UHGV virus genome: UHGV-0119078
DNA: 10,730 nucleotides
Reading direction: 5' to 3' (one strand)
Origin: a virus
The position numbers were made by a program, and so were the translations under genes. Position 1 is the first letter of the stretch; each line of letters starts with the position of its first letter. Positions 1 to 10,730 of this stretch are shown piece by piece. The notes under the pieces were generated by a model. The model had not been told where the DNA came from. It worked only from the letters and a program-made list of their open reading frames with translations, and searched no databases.

Positions 1-42
1 TAAAATCGAGACCTGGTTTTTCTACTGAAATGATTATGACTT

Positions 43-55
43 CAATGACCCTTGA
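43..55. repeat. Left copy of 13-bp perfect direct repeat CAATGACCCTTGA (candidate attL core)
   Basis: Identical 13-mer at 43..55 and 10676..10688; flanks differ immediately outside the repeat; right copy lies about 90 bp from the start of the large serine recombinase gene. Confidence 0.45.
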
Positions 56-110
56 ATGAAGTCTATTCGGTTTTCTAAGAGACCTGTTAATTACAGGACA
101 ATATCAGGTG

Positions 111-135
111 TAGTTGGGCTTGTTCCAACCCCTAT
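111..135. repeat. Left copy of 25-bp direct repeat TAGTTGGGCTTGT(T/A)CCAACCCCTAT
   Basis: 24/25 identity with 2914..2938; contains dyad GTTGG-N7-CCAAC. Confidence 0.6.
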
Positions 136-312
136 GACTATGCAATTTAACGGTATTTTTCCAAGTATCTAAGCAGTTTTACACAGATTCTATGCAGTAT
201 CGGTATAGTCCCTTTTTAGCATAACTTATTGAAATATATAAAGAATCTTTGAAGTCTCTTTTCAGGGTAAACTGTATCGTGTTAGTCGTCCCTCTCTCGA
301 CTCCTAGAAAAG

Positions 313-345
313 TGCTATATACAGGGCTATATAACGCTATCTATG
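313..345. promoter_or_regulatory. Three iterated GCTATATA/GCTATCTA motifs at about 10-12 bp spacing, downstream of the small recombinase gene
   Basis: GCTATATA at 314..321 and 326..333, GCTATCTA at 336..343; reverse complement of the TATAGC motifs found upstream of the recombinase gene (1097..1200). Confidence 0.3.
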
Positions 346-462
346 CAGTTGGTCACACAGAATAACTATCAAGCTGCTTAACAGTTTCTTACGTGAAAGT
401 TATTTCTGAGGGTGGGTAAGTGTTCAGGAGATTTTGCGTAGGACACGCTTAGAGAGTGGATA

Positions 463-488
463 CAAAAAAGCCCCCATGAAGGAGGCTA
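463..488 (-). terminator. Rho-independent terminator candidate for the small serine recombinase gene
   Basis: On the minus strand: stem AGCCUCC / GGGGGCU (7 bp, one G-U pair), loop UUCAU, followed by U6 (plus-strand A6 at 464..469). Confidence 0.45.
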
Positions 489-513
489 TGAAGATGCTAC
501 TAAGTTTTTTTTT

Positions 514-1089
514 TTACAGTGTCTTTGTCCAGTGACGGCTAACCGTTCTTACAGAGAGATTCAGAAGCTTTGCAACCTGACTTTGTGACAATCCCTTTGC
601 CTTATGCTCTAAAACGGCCTCTGTAGTGTTCACAGCTACAGGACGACCCAACACCTTACCTTGTGCTTTAACACGCTGTAGACCCTGCTTAGTACGCTCT
701 CTGATGCGGTTACGTTCGAACTCTGCAAAAGCCCCGAACATTTGAAGCATCATTCTACCTTCTGGCTTGGATAAGTCCTGTATGGGCAAGTCTAAGCAAA
801 TTAGCTTAATCCCTTTTGCAATGAGCATATCAACCGTTTTCTGTAGGTCGATACAATCACGTCCTAAACGGTCAAGCTTGAGAACCACCAGCGTATCACC
901 AGCCTCTAGTTTATGTGTGACCAAGTTAGAGAACTCTTTACGCTCCATAGCAGCCACTGAACCGGATACTACTTCTTCTATGATTCGTGTCTTAGGGATT
1001 GTGTAACCTGCATTCTTGATGGCTTCAATCTGGTTCTCATTGGTGGAGTCATCAACTGATACACGACAGTAAGCAAAGATGCGTGACAT
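514..1089 (-). CDS. Small serine recombinase, resolvase/invertase family (Hin/Gin/TnpR-like)
   Basis: 191-aa ORF; N-terminal catalytic block YCRVS, conserved GDTLVVLKLDRLGRD and ERTKQGLQRVKAQGKVLGRP blocks closely resembling Hin/Gin and Tn3-type resolvases; C-terminal HTH-like region; SD-like AAGGGA upstream of the ATG. Confidence 0.85.
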   Translation of the reverse strand: MSRIFAYCRVSVDDSTNENQIEAIKNAGYTIPKTRIIEEVVSGSVAAMERKEFSNLVTHKLEAGDTLVVLKLDRLGRDCIDLQKTVDMLIAKGIKLICLDLPIQDLSKPEGRMMLQMFGAFAEFERNRIRERTKQGLQRVKAQGKVLGRPVAVNTTEAVLEHKAKGLSQSQVAKLLNLSVRTVSRHWTKTL

Positions 1090-1096
1090 GTTCTAT

Positions 1097-1200
1097 CCCT
1101 TCTATATAGCCAACAAAGGCCTGTCTTGCTTGTCTATAGCCATTAAATCAATTATCACAATTGTTGTCTATAGCTACAGCTACCTTTTTATATAGACACT
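1097..1200. promoter_or_regulatory. Cluster of TGTCTATAGC-type motifs in both orientations immediately upstream of the small recombinase gene (candidate res-like/accessory binding region and promoter)
   Basis: TCTATATAGCC 1101..1111, TGTCTATAGCC 1131..1141, TGTCTATAGCT 1165..1175, inverted TATATAGACA 1190..1199; 1165..1199 forms an imperfect 35-bp palindrome (TGTCTATA ... TATAGACA). Confidence 0.4.
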
Positions 1201-1544
1201 TAACGGGCGTTTGTTGTCATGTGTATTTATACAGTTAAAGACCTCGATAGATGCCTTTATAGCAACTCACAGAGAAAGTCAATGATATTTGGCTTTTTTG
1301 CAAAGGGGGTCACATAGCTGGTGTGACGGGTACTTAGCAGACATACAGATATTTTCGAAGATTCGGGGAAGATGAGATTCAAAGAGGGCTAGTCATTTTT
1401 TATAAAAATTTTCAGAGACTGAAAAGTTACTGTACAGATTTTGCACAATCTTACCAAGCCTCATAGTTGATTCGATTAGAAGCTAATCTCATAGAAAGCT
1501 CTGTAGCGAGTTTTAACCCCATTTTTAGGGGTAACCTATAGGGA

Positions 1545-1641
1545 TGTACTAACCACCTTAAAATAAAGGGGTAAAATCGCTTAGAATGCGTTACAGAGCG
1601 TCTGAGAAGCCATATTCACAGATTTTACTAAAGTCTCAGAC
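1545..1641. repeat. Left arm of about 97-bp imperfect inverted repeat (pairs with 4417..4513)
   Basis: Ungapped alignment of 1545..1641 with the reverse complement of 4417..4513 gives about 69% identity, with core blocks 27/31 (1581..1611 vs 4447..4477) and 12/13 (1629..1641 vs 4417..4429); both arms begin with TGT at the outer end. Confidence 0.7.
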
Positions 1642-1661
1642 TTCTAAGTGGTCTTTTTAAC

Positions 1662-1710
1662 AGGAGGGGTTCCCCTATGGTCACATATCCCCTCTCTCTC
1701 CCGCTTAGTG
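1662..1710 (+). repeat. Copy 1 of a three-member motif family: G-rich hairpin followed by TCTCCCGCTTAGTG
   Basis: AGGAGGGGTTCCCCT hairpin then GGTCACAT then TCTCCCGCTTAGTG (1697..1710, identical 14-mer also at 2371..2384). Confidence 0.5.
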
Positions 1711-2114
1711 TCCCTTGATAGTATCTAGAGAGTATGCCTGTAAAACTTCTATATCAGGTCAGATTTAGAGGGTTTGATAGAATCTTCAAAGGTACTTGAC
1801 AGATAACTATGAAGTTGCCAGGAAGGAGTGTTTAACGGGAGGAAAGATACGATATAACCCGAAGGGGAGAGTATCATCTTAACAATTATCTTAAGAATAA
1901 AAACTGAAAAATTCTTAACAGAACTACCAAGAGGGAGCGATAAGACCAGAGGTAGTGACCTTGTTAAATAGGCCGTTTCAAAGCTCTTAAGAGTTTGTTA
2001 AGTAATGGCTATGTGAACAATCTTACCACTTTGTCAATGCTTTTGTCTTTGACCTAAATCAATAAAATGTATCGTTTGATGCACTTTTAAACAAAATAGC
2101 TAAAAAATCTTTTT

Positions 2115-2163
2115 AGAGGGGCGCTTCGCTTGGGGTCACTATGTTCTTTCTCTCCCGTTAAGA
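2115..2163 (+). repeat. Copy 2 (divergent) of the G-rich hairpin / TCTCTCCCG motif family
   Basis: AGAGGGGCGCTTCGCTTGGGGTCACT ... TTTCTCTCCCGTTAAG; shares GGGGTCAC and TCTCTCCCG with the copies at 1662 and 2338. Confidence 0.4.
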
Positions 2164-2337
2164 GGGAAGTTACAGGGACATTTCAAAGCCCTGATAAGGT
2201 AAGCCCGATGATAACAGAAACAGAGGGCAAAACCACTTATCAACACTGTGAACGAATAACGTAAAGGGCTGGTTAAGAAGGTCGGTTTAGGGATTGGTAG
2301 ATGATTCGGATGAAGCATCCTCATAACAATACCAATT

Positions 2338-2384
2338 AGAAGGGAGCTTCCCTTTCTTGGGTGTCGCTCTTCTCCCGCTTAGTG
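2338..2384 (+). repeat. Copy 3 of the G-rich hairpin / TCTCCCGCTTAGTG motif family
   Basis: AGAAGGGAGCTTCCCTTTC hairpin then TCTTCTCCCGCTTAGTG; 14-mer 2371..2384 identical to 1697..1710. Confidence 0.5.
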
Positions 2385-2413
2385 GATTGATTAAGAAGAC
2401 CTCTGAAGTTTCT

Positions 2414-2584
2414 CTGTGAAGGTGCTGGACAGCCTTATATATGGCTAATTACAACTTATTGAAAAATAAGAACTTTTAGAAGTTACTGTTAAGGTTACGG
2501 AGTTAACTGTGAAGAGACTTGTCAGTTCTCTATATATGGCTAATTACAACTTATTGAAAAATAAGAACTTTTAGAAGTTACTGT
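2414..2584 (+). repeat. Tandem direct repeat, two units (2414..2489 and 2507..2584) with a perfect 54-bp core (2436..2489 = 2531..2584)
   Basis: Core TATATATGGCTAATTACAACTTATTGAAAAATAAGAACTTTTAGAAGTTACTGT is identical in both units; each core holds a 6-bp stem with GAAA tetraloop (CTTATT-GAAA-AATAAG) and an adjacent 5-bp hairpin (AACTT-TTAG-AAGTT); units share CTGTGAAG upstream with a divergent linker. Confidence 0.75.
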
Positions 2585-2684
2585 CAGAGAGGTGAATACT
2601 TGATAGATACAGCTTTCCGGTTCTGTCAAGAGGTTTCACTACCCACCAGCTAAAAATATTTCAGAGGCGGGAGTGATGGGGGGG

Positions 2685-2861
2685 TTAGGACGGGTCTTTG
2701 TGGTCATTATCCTTAAGGTCAAGCGTCCATGTACGACCGAACAGTTTAAAGACAACAAGCACTCTGACGAGGACGTAGCGGAGTAACAGACCTGCAATCA
2801 GCCCGATACCTCCACCAGCCCATACATCAGGTGACCCCAGTTCAGGAGGGAGATTTACCAT
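2685..2861 (-). CDS. Candidate small membrane protein (58 aa from internal ATG with AGGAAA SD-like sequence; 70 aa if started at 2897)
   Basis: ORF encodes one strongly hydrophobic segment (WAGGGIGLIAGLLLRYVLVRVLVVFKLF) followed by a charged tail; locally GC-richer than surroundings. No recognisable family; could be spurious. Confidence 0.3.
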   Translation of the reverse strand: MVNLPPELGSPDVWAGGGIGLIAGLLLRYVLVRVLVVFKLFGRTWTLDLKDNDHKDPS

Positions 2862-2913
2862 TAAATTTCCTGTGTGCAATGCAATACCATGTGACATACA
2901 TAGTTGATTCGGT

Positions 2914-2938
2914 TAGTTGGGCTTGTACCAACCCCTAT
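2914..2938. repeat. Right copy of 25-bp direct repeat TAGTTGGGCTTGT(T/A)CCAACCCCTAT
   Basis: 24/25 identity with 111..135; lies just upstream (on the minus strand) of the small membrane ORF and about 90 bp upstream of the 3026 promoter. Confidence 0.6.
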
Positions 2939-3025
2939 CGAATAAACCTCATAGCCACGCCTTTATATTTTACTCTCCCCATAGAACCATTATACCACAG
3001 ATGTTAATAAAATGTTAAAAAATAC

Positions 3026-3054
3026 TTGACATTAGTCTTTGAAAATGCTAGTAT
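3026..3054 (+). promoter_or_regulatory. Sigma70/SigA-type promoter for the 3106..4417 operon
   Basis: Consensus -35 TTGACA (3026..3031), 17-bp spacer, extended -10 TGcTAGTAT (3046..3054), followed by ATTGTATATATA element shared with the 4553 promoter. Confidence 0.55.
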
Positions 3055-3105
3055 TGTATATATAAGTTAACAGAATAATAACATCTTATGAGGGTCGGAA
3101 CATGA

Positions 3106-3663
3106 ATGAGAGACGCAGAATTTAGAGCGATGCTTCAGGCATCGAGACAACGTAACAAGCACAACTCCTACGCTTACACAAACTCCCCCACCAGCCACGA
3201 ATTACCCAAGTTTACCAAGAAAGAACGCAAAGGCATTGACGAAGTAATTCGGGCAATTACACCGAGGAACCGTTACATGCCAACACGCAAAACAACAAAG
3301 AACAGCATCAAGAATTATCTGGCTAGCTTTGACAGCTACGCGCAACTACCGAGCAAGCTTGATGATATTTTTATTGGATTTTGCAGAAGCGAGGGTCACC
3401 AGAAATACAACCAGAAGGTTTTTTATTTACTGCGAAGTCTTGATGAAATTAACTCAGCCACCGTGACAAATCATCTTCAGCGTCAAGCAACCAGACTTAG
3501 CCATGAATTACCAAGCGATAAATATTGCGCTTTGCTTGCTGTAATGTGCGCAAAGTTAATTGGTGTTGTTGAGCATCATATTGCCGTTGGAAATATTGAG
3601 CCAATGGAAAACGAGCAACCAGATTTCGAGTTTGACCCGTATTTAGTTACAGAGGAATTTTAA
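3106..3663 (+). CDS. Hypothetical protein (185 aa), basic N-terminus, acidic C-terminal tail
   Basis: Intact ORF directly downstream of the predicted promoter; GAGGG SD-like sequence upstream; stop codon directly abuts the next ATG (TAAATG). No family recognised. Confidence 0.65.
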   Translation: MRDAEFRAMLQASRQRNKHNSYAYTNSPTSHELPKFTKKERKGIDEVIRAITPRNRYMPTRKTTKNSIKNYLASFDSYAQLPSKLDDIFIGFCRSEGHQKYNQKVFYLLRSLDEINSATVTNHLQRQATRLSHELPSDKYCALLAVMCAKLIGVVEHHIAVGNIEPMENEQPDFEFDPYLVTEEF

Positions 3664-3942
3664 ATGAAGAAACACACTTTGACCCGTATTTCAGAGGAAG
3701 CTTTTAACGAGCTTACCAGAATTAAACGAGCTACTAACTTGCCTCATCAAACTGTAATGCAGCTTGCAATTGCTAAAGAGGTCACTGAGTCGGATTTACT
3801 TAAATATCCAGTCTCTAAAGGTCGTAAGCACATCCGAATTACTCAGGACGCTTTAGATACTTTGAAGGCACTTAACGGCTTTAAGATTGATATTGCCCGA
3901 CTATTGAGCATCAAAATTAACAAGCTATCTCAAGAGGTCTGA
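3664..3942 (+). CDS. Hypothetical small protein (92 aa)
   Basis: ORF tightly packed between the upstream and downstream genes (2-nt gap to next ATG), consistent with an operon. No family recognised. Confidence 0.6.
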   Translation: MKKHTLTRISEEAFNELTRIKRATNLPHQTVMQLAIAKEVTESDLLKYPVSKGRKHIRITQDALDTLKALNGFKIDIARLLSIKINKLSQEV

Positions 3943-3944
3943 CT

Positions 3945-4217
3945 ATGAAGCAATGGCGAGATGATATTAAACGGTTCTTTGCAACTTACTTCATGATTAA
4001 TTACGAAACAGGAATGCTTGAATGGATTGATGGTGGAGAGGTTAAGACAAGAGATGACGCTTACGGTAATCCAATGATTCGTTATGGCACTCGTGATTAT
4101 TATGTGAAATATGTCATCTGGTTTTTGCATCATGAAGTTCAGGCAACTAAAAAAATTATCTTCAGGGATGGTAATAAAAGAAATTGCCACCCAAACAATT
4201 TACTACTGGAGATTTAA
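3945..4217 (+). CDS. HNH-like small protein (HNH_3-type fold), probably degenerate at the catalytic histidine
   Basis: 90-aa ORF with NYETGMLEW (matches the Y-x-ETG-x-x-x-W N-terminal signature of phage HNH_3 proteins) and a C-terminal IIFRDGNKRNCHPNNLLL block aligning with the IDHxDGN...N..NL HNH core, but with Phe/Arg where the catalytic His is expected. Confidence 0.5.
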   Translation: MKQWRDDIKRFFATYFMINYETGMLEWIDGGEVKTRDDAYGNPMIRYGTRDYYVKYVIWFLHHEVQATKKIIFRDGNKRNCHPNNLLLEI

Positions 4218-4417
4218 TGCTATGTATTAAATTCGAATATTTGACAGATAAAATGATTAAGCATGTATCAGACCTGCTCATCAAAGAAGGTGGTTTCGGT
4301 GATGCTTGCAATCCAAAAGATATCTTCATTCATGCCACCAGCCCAAACGCAACACTAAAGACAGCAGTTACAGCGGAATGGTTTGAACGAAATAAAGCGG
4401 AATTAGGTTATTGGTAG
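4217..4417 (+). CDS. Hypothetical small protein (66 aa), translationally coupled to the HNH-like gene
   Basis: ATG at 4217 overlaps the upstream TAA stop (TAATG); GGAG 5 nt upstream. The longer ORF-track start at 4184 lacks an RBS. No family recognised. Confidence 0.45.
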   Translation: MLCIKFEYLTDKMIKHVSDLLIKEGGFGDACNPKDIFIHATSPNATLKTAVTAEWFERNKAELGYW

Positions 4418-4513
4418 TCCGAGACTTTAAGAGAAATTAGAAAAACAGCTTCTCAGACGCTCTCAATCGCATTCTAACGCAAAAAACTACCTTATTTTAG
4501 GGTGGGTAACACA
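4417..4513. repeat. Right arm of about 97-bp imperfect inverted repeat (pairs with 1545..1641)
   Basis: See left arm; this arm starts at the stop codon of the 4217..4417 ORF and ends about 40 bp before the 4553 promoter. Confidence 0.7.
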
Positions 4514-4552
4514 GTAAATAAGAATTGATGTTACCAATCTGTTAAAAAGCTG

Positions 4553-4581
4553 TTGACAAATAACCTTAAGCATGACATAAT
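4553..4581 (+). promoter_or_regulatory. Sigma70/SigA-type promoter for the 4923..9034 gene set
   Basis: Consensus -35 TTGACA (4553..4558), 17-bp spacer, extended -10 TGaCATAAT (4573..4581), followed by ATTGTATATATA (4580..4591), identical to the element at 3053..3064. Confidence 0.5.
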
Positions 4582-4848
4582 TGTATATATAGGGAGAGCA
4601 ATTCTCCTTGAATTAAACTATTAATCGTTCTACATCAATGATAGTTGTTTTGAGTTGGAAAGGTGCAATGCTTTTCGTCATGGCCTATTTAGCCCACACT
4701 AGATAGGCTATCTCAAAAAGTACTCTTGTTCATTCGTTTGAATCCCTTAGATGTTTTAATTTCTTCACCTTATGAATGGCCCTTTATAAGAAATTATCTA
4801 GGGCTATTCAGTTTTTAAAAAGCATACTTGGCAAACCGCCTTTTAAGT

Positions 4849-4913
4849 CTCTTCTAAGTTTGTAGGCTGTCAGGTGTGCTTTTTAAAAACTGAAATACTT
4901 TAGCTTAGAAGAG
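4849..4913 (+). promoter_or_regulatory. 5-prime-UTR hairpin predicted to sequester the ribosome-binding site of the 4923 gene
   Basis: Perfect 10-bp inverted repeat CTCTTCTAAG (4849..4858) / CTTAGAAGAG (4904..4913) with a 45-nt loop; the 3-prime arm overlaps the SD (GAAGAGG) 10 nt upstream of the ATG; the UTR from the predicted promoter is about 330 nt. Confidence 0.35.
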
Positions 4914-4922
4914 GAAAAAACA

Positions 4923-5633
4923 ATGACAAACGATATTTACATTAACGGTAAAAAGATTGATAGCTTCGGTGACTGGTCGCCACAGACTGAACATCCAGCT
5001 ATCACTATTCAGCGTAAAGAACACGATGAAAGAATTAAGCTTGAGCAATCGTTAAAGATGTCACCAAAGGTAATTTCCTTTGTGTCTCCTGAGCCTCAAG
5101 AAATGCCAGATATCTGCAAAAGTGAAGCACTATTTAATCTTGAGCGTGAATACTACCCACAGTTAAAAGAACAGCGTATTCGACTTGATGACGCTTACAG
5201 CAAAGTTACCCTGATGCAATCAGCTATTGAGCCATCAGAATTTGAGATTCAGGATGAATTGTCACAGAAACCATTTGTCTATTACCAATATGAAGACAAT
5301 GATGGTTTTGGTACTTTTCCTGAGAATATCCCAGACGTGATTAATAATCTTTCTGACGGATATCGAATTGTGAAGATGATTGGAGCTTCAAGAGGTGCTG
5401 GTCAGTTTATTTACATGACCAATAAGAGCGATGAAGAACTCCGTGAAATTGCCAGACAGAACATCTTAGCATCACGTAACAAGCAACTTGAAAATGTTAA
5501 GTTGTGTCTCTTAAGAGAGCTTCAGGCTATGAAAGACCTTATTTCTGCATATGAAACGCAGAAGAAGGTTGCTATGCAGGCTGATATTGAGCAGTTAGTG
5601 AAGATTTCTCAGAAATACGCAAAGGCACTTTGA
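4923..5633 (+). CDS. Hypothetical protein (236 aa) with predicted C-terminal coiled coil
   Basis: Intact ORF with AGAGGAA SD-like sequence; no family recognised by inspection. Confidence 0.65.
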   Translation: MTNDIYINGKKIDSFGDWSPQTEHPAITIQRKEHDERIKLEQSLKMSPKVISFVSPEPQEMPDICKSEALFNLEREYYPQLKEQRIRLDDAYSKVTLMQSAIEPSEFEIQDELSQKPFVYYQYEDNDGFGTFPENIPDVINNLSDGYRIVKMIGASRGAGQFIYMTNKSDEELREIARQNILASRNKQLENVKLCLLRELQAMKDLISAYETQKKVAMQADIEQLVKISQKYAKAL

Positions 5634-5658
5634 CTATGAATTAAAAAGGAGGTGATGA

Positions 5659-5862
5659 ATGTTTGATTTAACGGAACGCTATGAACTTATTAAAGCAATT
5701 AGCGAGAGATTGAAAGAACAACCCAACAAACCAAAACGAATCAAATCATCCACCTCTAGGCAAAATAGCAGAATCAGAAGAATCGCTAAATGGTGTCTTG
5801 ATAAATTACCAAGTGATTGTCAGATTGTCGGTGAAGATGGTAATTATTATCTGATTAGATAA
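5659..5862 (+). CDS. Hypothetical small basic protein (67 aa)
   Basis: Strong SD AAAGGAGGTG 7 nt upstream of the ATG; lysine/arginine-rich central segment (KPKRIKSSTSRQNSRIRRIAKW), suggesting nucleic-acid binding. Confidence 0.55.
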   Translation: MFDLTERYELIKAISERLKEQPNKPKRIKSSTSRQNSRIRRIAKWCLDKLPSDCQIVGEDGNYYLIR

Positions 5863-5909
5863 AGAATTGGTTGGGTGTATGAGATAGGTTCTATCGAATC
5901 TATAACACG

Positions 5910-5951
5910 GGGAGAGATTATCGATATTATTCGGTAGTTTCTCCCTTTTTT
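5910..5951 (+). terminator. Possible intrinsic terminator/attenuator between the 67-aa gene and the tape-measure-like gene
   Basis: GGGAGA (5910..5915) pairs with TCTCCC (5940..5945) around a 24-nt loop containing the palindrome TATCGATA, followed by T6 (5946..5951). The long loop makes this weaker than a canonical terminator. Confidence 0.3.
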
Positions 5952-5980
5952 GTATATGAAACTTAAGAGGTGAAATATGA

Positions 5981-8107
5981 ATGAGCAAATTCACAGTTGA
6001 TAGTTTTATCGTTGAGTTAGGCTTCAGCGAGAACGTTATTAAGGGCTTGCAAAGAGTTGAAAAAGCAGCTTTGCAGTCAGCACAAAGAATTGAAAAGAAC
6101 CTAAATAAAGGCTTCAAGATTAATACAAAGCAACTTGACAGTAATCTGACAAGTTCTTTGAAGTCAATGGAAGGGAAAATTAATAAGACCTTTGACCGTC
6201 TGGAAGCTAGAGCAAGAAATACTAGAGTTTTCCGTTTCACAAGTCAGGTTAATGACGTTATTAATCCGCCAAAACAACCGAGGCCAAGAAGAGTTACTAG
6301 TGACCGAGCTATTACAGCGGCTTATTCAGCGAATATGACTAAGCTGAAAGGTCTTAACCCAATTGTCGAGAAATACATTAAGAGTCAGTTTTACGCATTA
6401 AGTAGTAAAGCTGGTCAGATGGATAACACCAAGTTTAATGAAGCCCTTGCTAAACTAAATTCAAGTGTACGAGAAGCAATTGCTAAAGCCAGAGGTCATA
6501 CATCCACCAGCATTAACGGTGACAGAGCAGCTAATAGTCTTGATAGTTTGAGTTCAGCAGCAGTTAAAACAGCAGGTGCATTTATCAGCTTTCAGGCTGT
6601 ACTATCCGCTTATCAGAAGATTATGGAAGTTGGCCTTCAACGTGCATCATCGGAAAGAAGTATTGATTTCGTATTCGGTGACCAAAGTACACAGGTCAAA
6701 AAGTTCATTCAAGATTTAACTCAAATTACTGGTATGGACACAACCGAAACACAAGCACAGTTTGCTTCATTTGGTGCATCTGCAAAAAATACGATGGGTC
6801 TTGAAGGCTCAGAGGAATTATTTAAAAACTTAACTGGATATGCCCGTTTAATGGGTCGTTCAGATGAGCAGATTCAAAGAGCATTAACCGCAGTATCGCA
6901 GATGGCTTCTAAGGGTCAGGTGATGGCTGAAGAGCTTAAGGGGCAACTATCTGAAGCTTTACCGGGTGCTACTCAGGCATTTGCAAAGGCTTTAGGTCTG
7001 ACTGAAAAACAGCTTTTCGATAAGATGAAAAATGGTGATGTTAAAGCCTCTGATGCACTCCCTAAGTTTGCTAAAGAACTTGGTTCACAGATTAATTCCA
7101 GAGGTGGCTGGAAAGCTATTCAGGACTCTACGCAGACGATGTTAGGGAACTTAAAGAATACTTGGAACAACTCACTAACGGATATCTTCAGAGGTTCTGA
7201 AAATGGTCTTCAAGATTTCACAAGAAGCTTAACCAATCTTTTAAATAGTCTTGGTGGGAGTGGTAAAACATTAGGTGAAAGTCTTGGTAATCTCATGACT
7301 TCTATGTCACACGGTGTCGATAACCTGACTGATATTAGTTACAGGGTAAGGGCGTTCTTTGACGAGGTGACATTGGCTTATCGTTCACTAAATGACACTC
7401 AGAAAAAAATTGTTGATGGCCTATCTGATGGGTTAATTGATGGTTTGAAGATGCTTGCTGTAGCTGTTACTGCTCAAAAGGCTGCAAATGTAGCTGGAGG
7501 CTTGTTAAACCTTGCAAATGCTGTTACTTCATTCGGTGACGCTGTTAATAAAGCTAAAGCTGGCAAGGCTGGTTCTTCAGGTGGTGCGCTAAATAAAGTT
7601 GGTAGAGTTGTTCTTTATGCTGAGTTGGTGAACTTTGCTCTTGATAATTTAAACCCTGAAGCGGCTAAGAATCCGAACTTACACCAATCAGGTATTGGAA
7701 CAGAGACAAACTTCAACCCTGAATACAAAGGCGATTCATCTAAACCAAACCAAATTAATGATGGATGGGCTAAGATTGGTGGTTCTATCGCTGACTGGTT
7801 TAATGGTGCAGCTAATAAAATTGCTAACTTCCAAGAACCGATGAATAACTTCGTAAATAACACACAATCAACTCCACCAGCTATCGACACGGTTAATAGC
7901 AATGCTCAATTAGCTATGGCTGTATCAGAGTTAGGAAGAAAGGTAGACGCTTTAACAGCAGAAACTAAGAAGCCCTTGTCACTTAATATCAAAGGTGAAG
8001 CAATTGTTAGGCCGGATGAACCATCTTTCTTTATTTTCAATCAATCGGCTAATGACCAGTTCACGCAGGATATGCTCTTAAGTTCAAGCTATCCAGAAGA
8101 AGAATGA
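5981..8107 (+). CDS. Tape-measure-protein-like protein (708 aa)
   Basis: Central block GQVMAEELKGQLSEALPGATQAFAKALGLTEKQLFDKMKNGDVKASDALPKFAKELG resembles the conserved core of phage tail tape measure proteins (recalled from memory, not searched); alpha-helical, Ala/Gly/Ser/Asn-rich, low-complexity C-terminal part; AAGAGGTGA SD. Coding confidence is high; the functional call is moderate. Confidence 0.55.
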   Translation: MSKFTVDSFIVELGFSENVIKGLQRVEKAALQSAQRIEKNLNKGFKINTKQLDSNLTSSLKSMEGKINKTFDRLEARARNTRVFRFTSQVNDVINPPKQPRPRRVTSDRAITAAYSANMTKLKGLNPIVEKYIKSQFYALSSKAGQMDNTKFNEALAKLNSSVREAIAKARGHTSTSINGDRAANSLDSLSSAAVKTAGAFISFQAVLSAYQKIMEVGLQRASSERSIDFVFGDQSTQVKKFIQDLTQITGMDTTETQAQFASFGASAKNTMGLEGSEELFKNLTGYARLMGRSDEQIQRALTAVSQMASKGQVMAEELKGQLSEALPGATQAFAKALGLTEKQLFDKMKNGDVKASDALPKFAKELGSQINSRGGWKAIQDSTQTMLGNLKNTWNNSLTDIFRGSENGLQDFTRSLTNLLNSLGGSGKTLGESLGNLMTSMSHGVDNLTDISYRVRAFFDEVTLAYRSLNDTQKKIVDGLSDGLIDGLKMLAVAVTAQKAANVAGGLLNLANAVTSFGDAVNKAKAGKAGSSGGALNKVGRVVLYAELVNFALDNLNPEAAKNPNLHQSGIGTETNFNPEYKGDSSKPNQINDGWAKIGGSIADWFNGAANKIANFQEPMNNFVNNTQSTPPAIDTVNSNAQLAMAVSELGRKVDALTAETKKPLSLNIKGEAIVRPDEPSFFIFNQSANDQFTQDMLLSSSYPEEE

Positions 8108-8263
8108 TTTAACGGTGTTCTACGTGAATAAAGCAAAGTTAATACCCGCACTGAAAAATAATTTTTACGTAGCTCACGCTTAACAGAGAAAATACTTATA
8201 TATCAAAGGCTTGGTTAAAAATGATTAAAATACACTAAGCCTTTGAAATCAAAGGAGAATTTA

Positions 8264-9034
8264 ATGATTTTTAGCAATCAAATCCGCTACAGTGGCAAAG
8301 ATGGCGTTTACTTCCACTTAAGAGATAATGTAGATGCCTTCTTAACCTTATCAGCAACTGAACAGATGGAATATGACAGCCCTATGATGGTGACAACTCA
8401 GGCTATGCAATCGGGGCAAACTATAACTGATAATGTTCAGAGAGCACCTAAGACCATCTCTATTAGCGGTGTTGTAGTGGTTGATTCGACGGGTTCAGTT
8501 CTATTAACCAGACAGGGGCAACTTGTAGAAACCTTTATTTCTACGGTTGAACAATGGCGAGACCAGAAGCAAATCATCACTATTGTTTGTAAAGATGGAA
8601 TATCTATCACTGATAGTATCATTACTCAGTTTAAAGCGAGTAAAGAGCATACCATTGCTAATGGTCTTCGTATTCAGATGACCTTCCAAGGTGTAGAATT
8701 TCGTTCAATCGTAGGTCAAACTGATATTTCAGCAGCAACTGGAAAGACCGCTACCACGAATGATGGCGGTTCTACCAGTAAAAAGAACACTGGCAACACT
8801 ACAACGAGTCTTGGAAGCCCTATGCTGACCTGTAAAGAGCTTTTTAGCTATTCGGCAAGTGAGTTATCAGATGAAGCGCTAAAAGCCCGTGTAACGTGCT
8901 CTAAGAGCGTTAGCGTTAAAAATGGTGAGAGCACCTTCACAGCCTCAGCTAATGAGCAAGCTTCAAAGGTGCTTAAGTCGGGTAATGCTTTACGGAAGTT
9001 TTCTGTAAATCCGAACAAGAAGGGCACTTATTGA
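8264..9034 (+). CDS. Hypothetical protein (257 aa from ATG 8264), possibly tail-associated given its position after the tape-measure-like gene
   Basis: AAAGGAG SD 6 nt upstream of ATG 8264 (the ORF-track TTG start at 8243 has no RBS); Ser/Thr/Gly-rich central linker. No family recognised. Confidence 0.55.
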
Positions 9035-9038
9035 GACA

Positions 9039-9061
9039 TAAAAAGGGGCTTCATAGCCCCT
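9039..9061. terminator. Intrinsic terminator between convergent genes (strong for the minus-strand integrase gene)
   Basis: Perfect 7-bp stem AGGGGCT / AGCCCCT with loop TCAT (9044..9061); plus-strand A5 (9039..9043) gives a U-tract on the minus strand immediately after the integrase stop codon. Confidence 0.6.
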
Positions 9062-9066
9062 GAAAA

Positions 9067-10587
9067 TTACAGTTGATAAGCGTCTATTTCTAGTAGCTCT
9101 TTTTCAGCAATTTCAAATATTGATGTTCCATCATTTAGCGGTAACGGGTTTGTAGGTATGGTGATTTCAGTGTCGTTCTGTAGCGTTACAATTACCGAAT
9201 CCTTACCCAATGTAAGCCCTTTTAGATGTTTGGACAAAATCAACTGACACTCGACACGACCCGCTTTAGTTGTCAGGTCAATATCTTTAAGCTGGGGTAG
9301 TTCCTTATCAGTGAGTGAAGCCTTACGCCTCATGTTATCAATCGTGGTCTGTAGCTCTGTACGCCTCTGGTTCAGTTCCTTAATCTGAATTTTTAGTTCA
9401 TCAATATCATCCATCTCAAGAAGTAGGGCGGTAGCTTTCTTGATTCTGGTTGTGACAATTTCAACCTCATGCTGTAGAGATGCAATCTTCCCCTCTGCTT
9501 CTCCATCATTCCCCACGTCAATCATTCCTAGAAAATTTTCAAGCATCCACTTATCAAACGGTTTACGCTTCAACGGAGGAACATCACAGCGACCATCAAG
9601 ATGGTTATTGCACCGATAAACGCCCTGATACTTATTCTTAGTCCCTGTAGGGTGAACACTAGCCCCGCACTGACACCTAAACAGACCTTTGAAGATGTTA
9701 ATCGTTAATGGATTATCACTTGCAGGTGTACGGCCTATACGGTTCTTACCAAGAATCTCTTGAGCTTTATTGAACGTTGAAGCATCTATAGCGGCTTCGT
9801 AGTAGTTCGGTATAGCGGGGCGGTCATTACGTTGTGATGCTGGTAACGTGCCTATCGTTGTCTCTGACCTTAAGATGGTGCGTACAGAGTGAACACTAAA
9901 CCCGTTAGCATCTTTACGGCGACTAAACGACTTTATACCGTTGCTTTGAAGGTGACGGGCGATGTTATGCAGACTTTCACCACTTAGCAGCAGCTTGAAA
10001 ATCAGTCTTACAGTCTCAGCGTGTTCATTGAGTTTAAAAGTATCGGGGTCAATCCATCCGGGAACCATCTTTGTTAAACGTTGTTCACCAGCAAGGGCAA
10101 GTTTTGCACGTTGCTCCCATTTCTGAGAAACACGGAAAGACTTCTGCTTAGATTCCTGATGCGCTATGTAGGCTTTGACACGCTGGATGATTGAGATTCC
10201 TAAATCATCGGCTAAAGCATCCTTTGTGTAGATAAGACCATCTTGTAGCGTGTGAATCTCTAACCCGTTGCCTAAGATGCGATTCATCAAGGCTTCTGTT
10301 TCAAGGTGTTCTAAGCGGCCTATACGGTCGATACTCTCAACAAGCAAAATCGTACCTTCTGGAAACTCCCCAGACTCAATACGGGCTAACATGTCACCAA
10401 ACTGACCAGTAAGATGCTTACCTTTGTAACCGGATAGACCTTCATCACTGAAAGACGCTACTACTTGAGCATCGCTATTCTTCTTCAGCCACTGCTTGAA
10501 CAGGTCGTTTTGTCGTCTGGTTGAATCTGCACCTTCAGCGCCTTGTATGGCTGATGAGAATCTCAAGTATGTTATTACGGTTCTCAC
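9067..10587 (-). CDS. Large serine recombinase (phage-type serine integrase)
   Basis: 506-aa ORF; N-terminal resolvase-type catalytic domain (YLRFSSAIQ, LLVESIDRIGR), extended recombinase domain, Cys-rich zinc-ribbon-like motif (CQCGASVHP ... YRCNNHLDGRCD) and C-terminal coiled coil (KIQIKELNQRRTELQTTIDNMRRK); start codon appears to be GTG (plus-strand CAC at 10585..10587) with GGAG upstream. Confidence 0.85.
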   Translation of the reverse strand: MRTVITYLRFSSAIQGAEGADSTRRQNDLFKQWLKKNSDAQVVASFSDEGLSGYKGKHLTGQFGDMLARIESGEFPEGTILLVESIDRIGRLEHLETEALMNRILGNGLEIHTLQDGLIYTKDALADDLGISIIQRVKAYIAHQESKQKSFRVSQKWEQRAKLALAGEQRLTKMVPGWIDPDTFKLNEHAETVRLIFKLLLSGESLHNIARHLQSNGIKSFSRRKDANGFSVHSVRTILRSETTIGTLPASQRNDRPAIPNYYEAAIDASTFNKAQEILGKNRIGRTPASDNPLTINIFKGLFRCQCGASVHPTGTKNKYQGVYRCNNHLDGRCDVPPLKRKPFDKWMLENFLGMIDVGNDGEAEGKIASLQHEVEIVTTRIKKATALLLEMDDIDELKIQIKELNQRRTELQTTIDNMRRKASLTDKELPQLKDIDLTTKAGRVECQLILSKHLKGLTLGKDSVIVTLQNDTEITIPTNPLPLNDGTSIFEIAEKELLEIDAYQL

Positions 10588-10675
10588 GGTGATAAACTCC
10601 CATGCAATTGATTATCATTTAAAGATGAACTTATAAACGTTATGGCTAATGCTACAATGCCGAATAGCTACAATA

Positions 10676-10688
10676 CAATGACCCTTGA
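10676..10688. repeat. Right copy of 13-bp perfect direct repeat CAATGACCCTTGA (candidate attR core)
   Basis: Identical to 43..55; lies about 90 bp outside the integrase start. Confidence 0.45.
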
Positions 10689-10730
10689 TTTACCTCGCCG
10701 CTTCCCCTGGCCGACGTTACTTTCGGTCTG

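Follow-up and report, generated by a model that had tools for sequence, protein, structure and literature searches.

What is a gene for a large serine recombinase doing immediately beside one of two identical sequences that close off a short stretch of DNA? In UHGV virus genome UHGV-0119078 (10,730 nt, referred to here as the window) the 13-bp sequence CAATGACCCTTGA occurs in exactly two copies, at 43-55 and 10676-10688, both on the plus strand and 10,633 bp apart from repeat to repeat, and the GTG start of the recombinase gene (10587) is located 88 nt inside the right copy. A preliminary description had noted this perfect direct repeat, had placed the recombinase about 90 bp inside its right copy and had read the repeats as attL and attR of a discrete element of about 10.6 kb. 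The first two points are confirmed here, and the third is supported by an empty site and by junctions at the same bases in related elements. It is very probable that the repeats represent the attL and attR of an island that was integrated site-specifically by the large serine recombinase at the start of tonB. The features concerned are as follows.

1-42, plus strand: left host flank, the B arm of attL, with the native tonB -10 region and 5' leader; identical in empty-site genomes
43-55, plus strand: attL core CAATGACCCTTGA (exact repeat search, junction comparison), with the host's original tonB ATG at 45-47
48-49 (attL) and 10681-10682 (attR), plus strand: inferred crossover dinucleotide AC (attP dyad axis, minimal core CAATGAC)
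56-90, plus strand: P' arm of attP at the left element end, about 35 nt identical in L001-L004, with the motif GTCTATTCGG at 61-70
514-1089, minus strand: small serine recombinase of the resolvase/invertase type with a C-terminal helix-turn-helix (Pfam Resolvase, E=1.8e-37), an accessory gene
9067-10587, minus strand: large serine recombinase (integrase) of 506 amino acids (aa), GTG start at 10587 (Pfam, PHROGs)
10588-10675, no strand assigned: integrase-tonB spacer of 88 nt, with the P arm CCGAATAG at 10660-10667, the presumed integrase promoter and candidate tonB promoters
10604-10622: Fur-box-like 19-mer with core TGATTATCA at 10609-10617, matching the Fur consensus at 13/19 positions
10608-10613 (TTGATT) and, after 18 nt, 10632-10637 (TATAAA), plus strand: candidate substitute tonB promoter from consensus reading, its -35 overlapping the 19-mer
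10650-10658, plus strand: alternative extended -10-like sequence TGcTACAAT from consensus reading
10676-10688, plus strand: attR core CAATGACCCTTGA, holding the functional tonB start codon at 10678-10680
10678-10730, plus strand: right host flank, the B' arm, with the 5' end of tonB (MTLDLPRRFPWPTLLSV...) (start of the RefSeq tonB coding sequence, empty-site match)

The tonB start codon as integration site

The window derives from the Escherichia coli chromosome and is matched with one mismatch by NZ_AP027844.1 (L001), in which yciI and tonB flank the element. The right copy of the repeat includes the tonB ATG at 10678-10680 (translated as MTLDLPRRFPW...), and the tonB gene beside the element is annotated in RefSeq as an intact coding sequence of 720 nt. 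Upstream of the left copy in L001, yciI is followed by TTGAAT-N18-TAAAAT, so that the native tonB promoter abuts and runs into the window start, and the native Fur-box-like 19-mer of tonB, which is a Fur-repressed gene, falls upstream of window position 1. The ATG at 45-47 in attL now opens a four-codon remnant, MTLE followed by a stop (45-59; ATG ACC CTT GAA TGA). The target is the tonB start codon, and integration therefore cuts tonB off from its native promoter while the gene is left intact. The stop codon of the attL remnant overlaps the ATG of a 38-aa open reading frame (ORF; 56-172) in an ATGA arrangement.

Joining the left flank, the repeat and the right flank had been proposed to give a candidate attB, together with a search of related genomes for the uninterrupted junction. 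In 5194 of 5426 complete E. coli genomes this 97-nt sequence (1-55 joined to 10689-10730) is unbroken and carries the annotation tonB. The integrase gene was found in 225 of the 5426 genomes, on the chromosome in every one, and a 111-nt query of the reconstructed attP also matched 225 genomes, always as separate halves (both halves in 175, one in 50). The two counts agree with the approximately 229 genomes that lack the contiguous site, and the distribution is patchy, with the element in about 4% of complete E. coli genomes. The tonB junction sequence also gave 13 matches to E. coli records that bear a plasmid label.

The window contains eight distinct pairs of repeated 13-mers, compared with an average of 1.2 in shuffled sequences, and a repeated 13-mer somewhere in 10.7 kb is, taken alone, not remarkable. 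None of 2000 shuffles produced a 13-mer common to the first and last 100 nt. No third copy of CAATGACCCTTGA is found in the window, even allowing two mismatches. The accompanying statement that both flanks differ in composition from the element was half right: GC content is 0.31 in the left flank and 0.595 in the right, against 0.40 in the element, and with 42 nt per flank the argument carries no weight. The decisive evidence for the boundaries is comparative rather than statistical.

Related elements and the attachment sites

Four other E. coli elements, three of which were extracted whole (L002-L004, 11.4-11.8 kb) and one as the right end only (L007, strain E24377A), show 86-91% identity to the window in shared segments; the left third of L002-L004 is mosaic. 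Their junctions lie at the same bases as in the window, at both ends in L002-L004 and at attR in L007. Strains D10 (NZ_CP010157) and LSN03-016011/A (NZ_CP035884) are examples of carriers whose island is intact. Citrobacter sp. ANG330, for which attR only was fetched, encodes an integrase that is 94% identical, and its element-side attR, identical to that of the window, is joined to a Citrobacter-type tonB. A scan of the GTDB species representatives with the integrase gave one further locus only, and names in protein collections place the lineage also in Shigella, E. fergusonii, E. albertii, Salmonella and Citrobacter. In O111 strains approximately the first 290 nt of the integrase gene (a 97-codon remnant) and the right end of the island remain beside an intact tonB, and in these pathogens tonB is permanently fused to island DNA. 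In the O111 strain E. coli 95JB1 (L006, 14000-14380) the remainder of the island has been replaced by insertion sequence (IS) remnants and type III effector genes.

More diverse integrases, which are 58-61% identical to that of the window (P0033, P0034, P0041 and P0043) or, in one case, 74% identical (P0022), were traced to L008-L011, L013 and L014 and to L015, respectively, L013 being Citrobacter portucalensis. All are adjacent to tonB and divergent from it, and wherever the locus extends far enough (L008, L009, L011, L013 and L014) the element, of 5.8-7.7 kb, is bounded on its other side by yciI. The cargo of L008-L011, L013 and L014 differs from that of the window and includes a PD-T7-4-like DUF4145 protein; L015 is the exception, with the same tape measure and Dit-like genes as the window. 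Because these diverged integrases with differing cargo still adjoin tonB, site choice tracks the large integrase. The arm motifs CCGAAYAGCT and GTCTATTCGG are kept in these relatives, and the core common to attL and attR comprises only CAATGAC (L008 and L013) or CAATGACC (L011 and L014). A shared core of 7-8 bp implies that the 13-bp identity is lineage-specific and not required, which accounts for a length that had been considered long for a serine-integrase core. It follows also that the repeat is no target-site duplication and that crossover would be confined to the 7 bp CAATGAC.

To obtain attP the right end was joined to the left end; the junction of the excised form (10655-10688 joined to 56-80) would read ...CCGAATAGCTACAATACAATGACCCTTGAATGAAGTCTATTCGG... 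When 188 nt of this sequence were scanned, the best dyad axis was located between core bases 6 and 7 (CAATGA/CCCTTGA), with 14/22 and 16/26 positions complementary and with outer arms in which CCGAATAG (10660-10667) is paired with inverted CTATTCGG (63-70). The same dyad centre is observed in relatives (17/26 in L008 and 13/26 in L011), and the GTCTATTCGG motif at 61-70 is kept in L008, L011, L013 and L014. The attP site is therefore an imperfect inverted repeat of about 50 bp centred on the inferred crossover, as a serine integrase system requires. Such enzymes need a non-palindromic central dinucleotide for polarity, and the position of the dyad axis points to AC, which is non-palindromic, occupies the centre of the dyad and closes the minimal shared core of 7 bp on its 3' side. 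The crossover is probably this central dinucleotide, which forms the first two bases of tonB codon 2; the tonB ATG in attR would then be element DNA, with the host's original ATG remaining at attL.

The integrase contains three Pfam domains above curated cut-offs, Resolvase (residues 4-162, E=6.5e-16), Recombinase (187-281) and Zn_ribbon_recom (298-346), together with the N-terminal catalytic motif Y7-x-R9-x-S11-x3-Q15 (Y7 L R9 F S11 S A I Q15). A cluster of Cys residues is visible in the translation, and weak matches of residues 363-458 to an SMC-related protein and PbeC are the sole hint of a coiled coil. The protein matches phrog_95 ("integrase", E=2.7e-78), and a sequence search of the PDB gave no solved structure at E<=1e-3. 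Its best phage-encoded relative, the YbcK-like recombinase of lambdoid phages, is only 31% identical. The enzyme is divergent and far from characterised enzymes, and its recombination activity is predicted.

Expression of tonB and alternative explanations

The native promoter, Fur box and leader are left at attL, and tonB must therefore be expressed from the right end of the island. The spacer in this position shows 0-2 differences among E. coli relatives whose integrases have a synonymous divergence (dS) of 0.26-0.44, and the blocks kept in alignment with distant relatives are the P arm, ATACAATGAC and TGATT(A/C)TCA. The last of these is the core of the Fur-box-like 19-mer and is kept in close and distant relatives. 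With 13/19 this 19-mer is tied third best in the window, and the best 19-mer of the native promoter region matches at 12/19. Transcription from TTGATT-18-TATAAA would give a tonB leader of about 33 nt, compared with about 31 nt from the native promoter. We consider the chances to be even that tonB receives from the spacer a substitute promoter equipped with a Fur-box-like operator.

In-frame ATGs at 10642 and 10657 with no stop between would allow TonB to be extended by 12 or 7 residues (MANATMPNSYNT-). This upstream extension is made by gene callers in relatives, and the frame is open in all lineages looked at; the DNA of the extension frame (10642-10680) is also constrained as an att arm. 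At the opposite end of the distant relatives, the captured native tonB promoter faces the PD-T7-4-like DUF4145 gene about 135 nt inside attL (L008 reverse complement, 5864-6000), and the left-end arrangement looks like capture of the tonB promoter by the island.

We propose that attP x attB recombination by the large serine recombinase placed the island between yciI and tonB, precisely where tonB begins, and that the 13-bp copies represent sequence common to attP and attB that is now split into attL and attR. Crossover at AC would leave the host promoter, Fur box, leader and ATG at attL, facing into the island. The tonB reading frame would be exactly restored, with the ATG and upstream DNA in attR then derived from the element, and the near-invariant 88-nt spacer would supply a replacement tonB promoter, the P arm and, presumably, the integrase promoter.

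A number of observations weigh against this proposal. The promoter and Fur-box assignments derive from consensus matches and sequence conservation, and the near-invariance of the spacer could stem partly from recombination between elements, not selection. A promoter scan of the spacer reported only GTGATA-18-TATCAT and missed TTGATT-18-TATAAA, the last base of which apparently fails the -10 hexamer rule. The symmetry of attB is weak (7-8/26, with an inner TCAA...TTGA). A serine integrase alone catalyses attP x attB recombination and needs a directionality factor for excision, and no such factor was recognised among the small ORFs using Pfam, PHROGs and further profile scans. Neither the exact 35-nt attP junction nor a degenerate 44-nt attP pattern covering all lineages is present in IMG/VR or the JGI metagenomes, and IMG/VR contains no relatives of the integrase. 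The 111-nt attP query found only split halves in complete E. coli genomes and gave no match at all against the PLSDB plasmids. The absence of attP is weak negative evidence, as assemblies are a poor place to look for rare circles.

The lack of an attP junction in any collection searched and of a recognised directionality factor also speaks for a locus that was integrated by a serine integrase in the past and is now fixed, vertically inherited and domesticated, without excision or transfer. The O111 strains, which keep only a right-end remnant beside tonB, and the several copies with IS insertions in cargo genes point in the same direction. We nevertheless regard a fixed locus as unlikely. All genes of the window copy are intact, and in the seven genes compared with L002-L004 the ratio of non-synonymous to synonymous divergence (dN/dS) is 0.13-0.43, with dS of 0.17-1.2 where estimable; the integrase itself is included, at 0.13-0.15. 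The island family is old and still under purifying selection, and not a decaying remnant. The integrase dS of 0.26-0.44 appears greater than would be expected for vertical descent within one species. In addition, Citrobacter harbours the same lineage beside a flank of Citrobacter type, records of Shigella, E. fergusonii, E. albertii and Salmonella also name it, and its presence in E. coli is patchy (about 4% of genomes).

It is highly unlikely that the small serine recombinase of the left end, or an enzyme acting in trans, carried out the integration, with the large enzyme serving another role. Every relative examined encodes a small Resolvase-family protein, that of the window matching gamma-delta and Tn3 resolvases and DNA invertase entries in the PDB, and the activity of the large enzyme is predicted. 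Integration is not, however, the normal activity of small resolvases and invertases, and in relatives this position is occupied, in one orientation or the other, by non-orthologous alleles with only 31-36% identity, despite identical element ends. The small enzyme therefore does not determine the site, and integration by it was rejected on these grounds; in every locus it is the gene of the large enzyme that adjoins the att site, and this enzyme has diverged in parallel with the arms. Least probable of all, to the point of being scarcely credible, is that transposition duplicated its target site to give the 13-bp repeat, or that the repeat arose by chance and plays no part in mobility. Repeated 13-mers are not rare in the window, but insertion is at the same base in every copy fetched, across two named genera and several other contigs, and the imperfect repeats of relatives, with 7-8 bp shared, are unlike a duplication. 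No transposase family was matched, and the terminal 13-mer repeat is absent from all 2000 shuffles. Target-site duplication and chance were accordingly rejected on the comparative junction data, and a transposon or insertion sequence was ruled out by the lack of a transposase family match, the constant site and the imperfect repeats in relatives.

The small recombinase alleles of L003 (2118-2666) and L004 (3842-4390; 36% identity) are opposite in orientation to that of the window and co-oriented with the captured tonB promoter.

Cargo genes and comparison with known systems

Site-specific integration by the large serine recombinase, the reading that we prefer, places the following further features within the island.

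2989-3054, both strands: back-to-back promoter-like sites, TTAACA-18-TATAAT (minus) and TTGACA-17-TAGTAT (plus), from a consensus scan
3106-4417, plus strand: small genes of unassigned function encoding proteins of 185 aa, 92 aa, 90 aa (HNH endonuclease) and 66 aa (ORFs, Pfam)
4923-5862, plus strand: a largely helical (predicted) protein of 236 aa and a 67-aa protein, upstream of the tape measure gene
5981-8107, plus strand: tape measure protein (Pfam TMP_3, phrog_4036)
8243-9034 (RefSeq start 8264), plus strand: Dit-like tail/baseplate protein (Pfam Dit_like, phrog_3721, E=3e-128)

The large serine recombinases of phiC31, Bxb1, A118/LI, TP901-1, SPbeta (SprA) and SCCmec (Ccr) provide the closest framework for the island. 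In common with these systems, the island encodes an enzyme with the three-domain architecture and catalytic Ser motif from a gene beside one element end, its attP is a simple imperfect inverted repeat around a probable non-palindromic central dinucleotide, and the core shared with attB varies in length among relatives. The differences are that its integrase has no solved-structure match and that the target is the tonB start codon. With elements such as e14 and phage 21 (both in icd), and with many tRNA-targeting integrases, integration takes place inside a gene whose reading frame is preserved by a replacement end that the element brings along. The island likewise duplicates the displaced part of its target (the ATG and codons 2-4) and leaves tonB intact. 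In contrast to e14 and phage 21, which use a tyrosine recombinase, the island enzyme is a serine recombinase, and the 5' rather than the 3' end is replaced, so that promoter, operator and leader are exchanged as well. Phage phi80 uses a tyrosine integrase. Its attachment site is yciI (PMC5727415), and the island shares this yciI-tonB neighbourhood, although the phi80 site is within yciI, a few hundred bp away, and phi80 is a full-size temperate phage. Full-text literature searches returned nothing that connects the tonB start with a serine integrase or an island. The island is an integrative element of the known large-serine-recombinase kind, and what is unusual is a gene-start target with promoter replacement.

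TonB energises the uptake of siderophores and vitamin B12, and phages T1 and phi80 as well as the group B colicins depend on it. In about 4% of complete E. coli genomes, including E24377A and the O111 strains, tonB is cut off from its native promoter by the island or its remnant, and the iron regulation of tonB in carrier strains may depend on element DNA. The family also provides a divergent integrase whose natural attP and attB sites are well defined and of the simple type that genome engineering employs, and a natural series of att variants with shared cores of 7, 8 and 13 bp.

Felix O1-like phages (Felixounavirus) are lytic. The Dit-like protein of the island is 68% identical to the product of the Felixounavirus gene that is located right after the tape measure gene, and the tape measure protein is 31% identical overall to that of Felixounavirus garuso (L012), with the identity concentrated in the first 45 or so residues. 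The two island tail genes (5981-9034) keep the phage order (garuso, L012 4011-7018), with a near-identical N-terminus and a divergent tape measure body. This pair of genes suggests interference with, or exploitation of, Felix O1-like tail assembly, an interaction that was not found described in the literature searched. Scans of 10-11 ORFs matched no family of capsid, portal or terminase proteins. The island is thus small (10.6 kb) and encodes an integrase without complete virion genes, its structural matches being restricted to the tape measure and Dit-like proteins, which is an arrangement seen in phage satellites.

The PLE of Vibrio cholerae targets superintegron repeats, whereas the island targets a gene start. 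PLE is a satellite of the lytic myovirus ICP1 and integrates by means of a large serine recombinase (PMC9638900, PMC9410903). The island resembles it in being small and chromosomal, with a large serine recombinase, lytic-phage-related cargo and no capsid or terminase match in the ORFs scanned, although tail-gene cargo of the kind found here is not recorded for PLE in these two papers. We tentatively put forward, as a possibility to which we attach limited confidence, that these loci form an undescribed family of tonB-start serine-integrase elements that swap promoters, whereby a captured Fur-regulated promoter would drive the left-end genes and a look-alike would be given to tonB, with the cargo acting as a satellite or as a tail-assembly decoy against lytic Felix O1-like phages.

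The remaining cargo genes gave no family match other than the HNH endonuclease in Pfam, PHROGs and other profile libraries, and PADLOC identified no known defence system among the window ORFs scanned. The small genes at 3106-4417 show dN/dS values of 0.15-0.27 in computable pairs. The 236-aa protein is labelled "transposase" in some records, yet neither Pfam, PHROGs, NCBIfam nor PADLOC assigns it to a family, and tblastn found no counterpart in phages. Its AlphaFold model is mostly helical and of mediocre quality (predicted local distance difference test score, pLDDT, 68) and gave nothing at E<=0.001 in a Foldseek search against BFVD. No resemblance was found between the 67-aa protein and the Felixounavirus tape measure chaperone.

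Insertion sequences recur in the tail genes of related copies. For example, in L001, the only near-identical complete genome, the tape measure gene is interrupted by an IS5-family insertion of 1,056 bp accompanied by a 9-bp duplication (L001 10744-11817, corresponding to window 6744-6752); the window lacks this insertion. IS66 is found in the Dit-like gene of E24377A (L007), and ISEc12 lies beside split tape measure genes in several E. coli.

The sole ORF of at least 70 aa in the approximately 2 kb between 1090 and 3100 encodes 70 aa (2685-2897, minus strand). This region is kept among relatives (92% identity to L002 and 76% to L003) and gave no Rfam match; some relatives possess a DNA adenine methyltransferase gene here, which is absent from the window. 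The back-to-back promoter-like sites at 2989-3054 represent a candidate regulatory switch upstream of the plus-strand gene block. A 25-nt repeat (24/25) with an internal palindrome is located at 111-135, just inside the left end, and at 2914-2938, beside these promoters, and is a possible operator. An 18-nt repeat is found at 1462-1479 and 2899-2916, again with its second copy beside the back-to-back promoters, and a perfect 54-nt direct repeat at 2436-2489 and 2531-2584 (spacing given as 95 nt).

A 27-nt inverted repeat (89% complementary, 34-nt loop) at 4807-4894 is situated just 5' of the 236-aa gene, and the only Rfam match at E<=1 was a chance hairpin match of this repeat to a plant microRNA family. 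An element of about 95 nt is present twice in inverted arrangement, at 1548-1645 (plus strand) and 4416-4512 (minus strand), the copies being 79% identical. Within this element a promoter-like TTAAAA-18-TAGAAT precedes a hairpin, GTCTGAGA...TCTCAGAC. The copy at 4416-4512 would be transcribed antisense to the gene block at 3106-4417 and is 96% conserved in L003, compared with 75-80% in its flanks. The -10 and the initial transcribed part of this element are matched (88% over 42 nt, E=5e-5) by unannotated DNA in 167 phage records. The top matches are Salmonella phages of about 112 kb, and in one Epseptimavirus the matching sequence falls inside the annotated terminal repeat.

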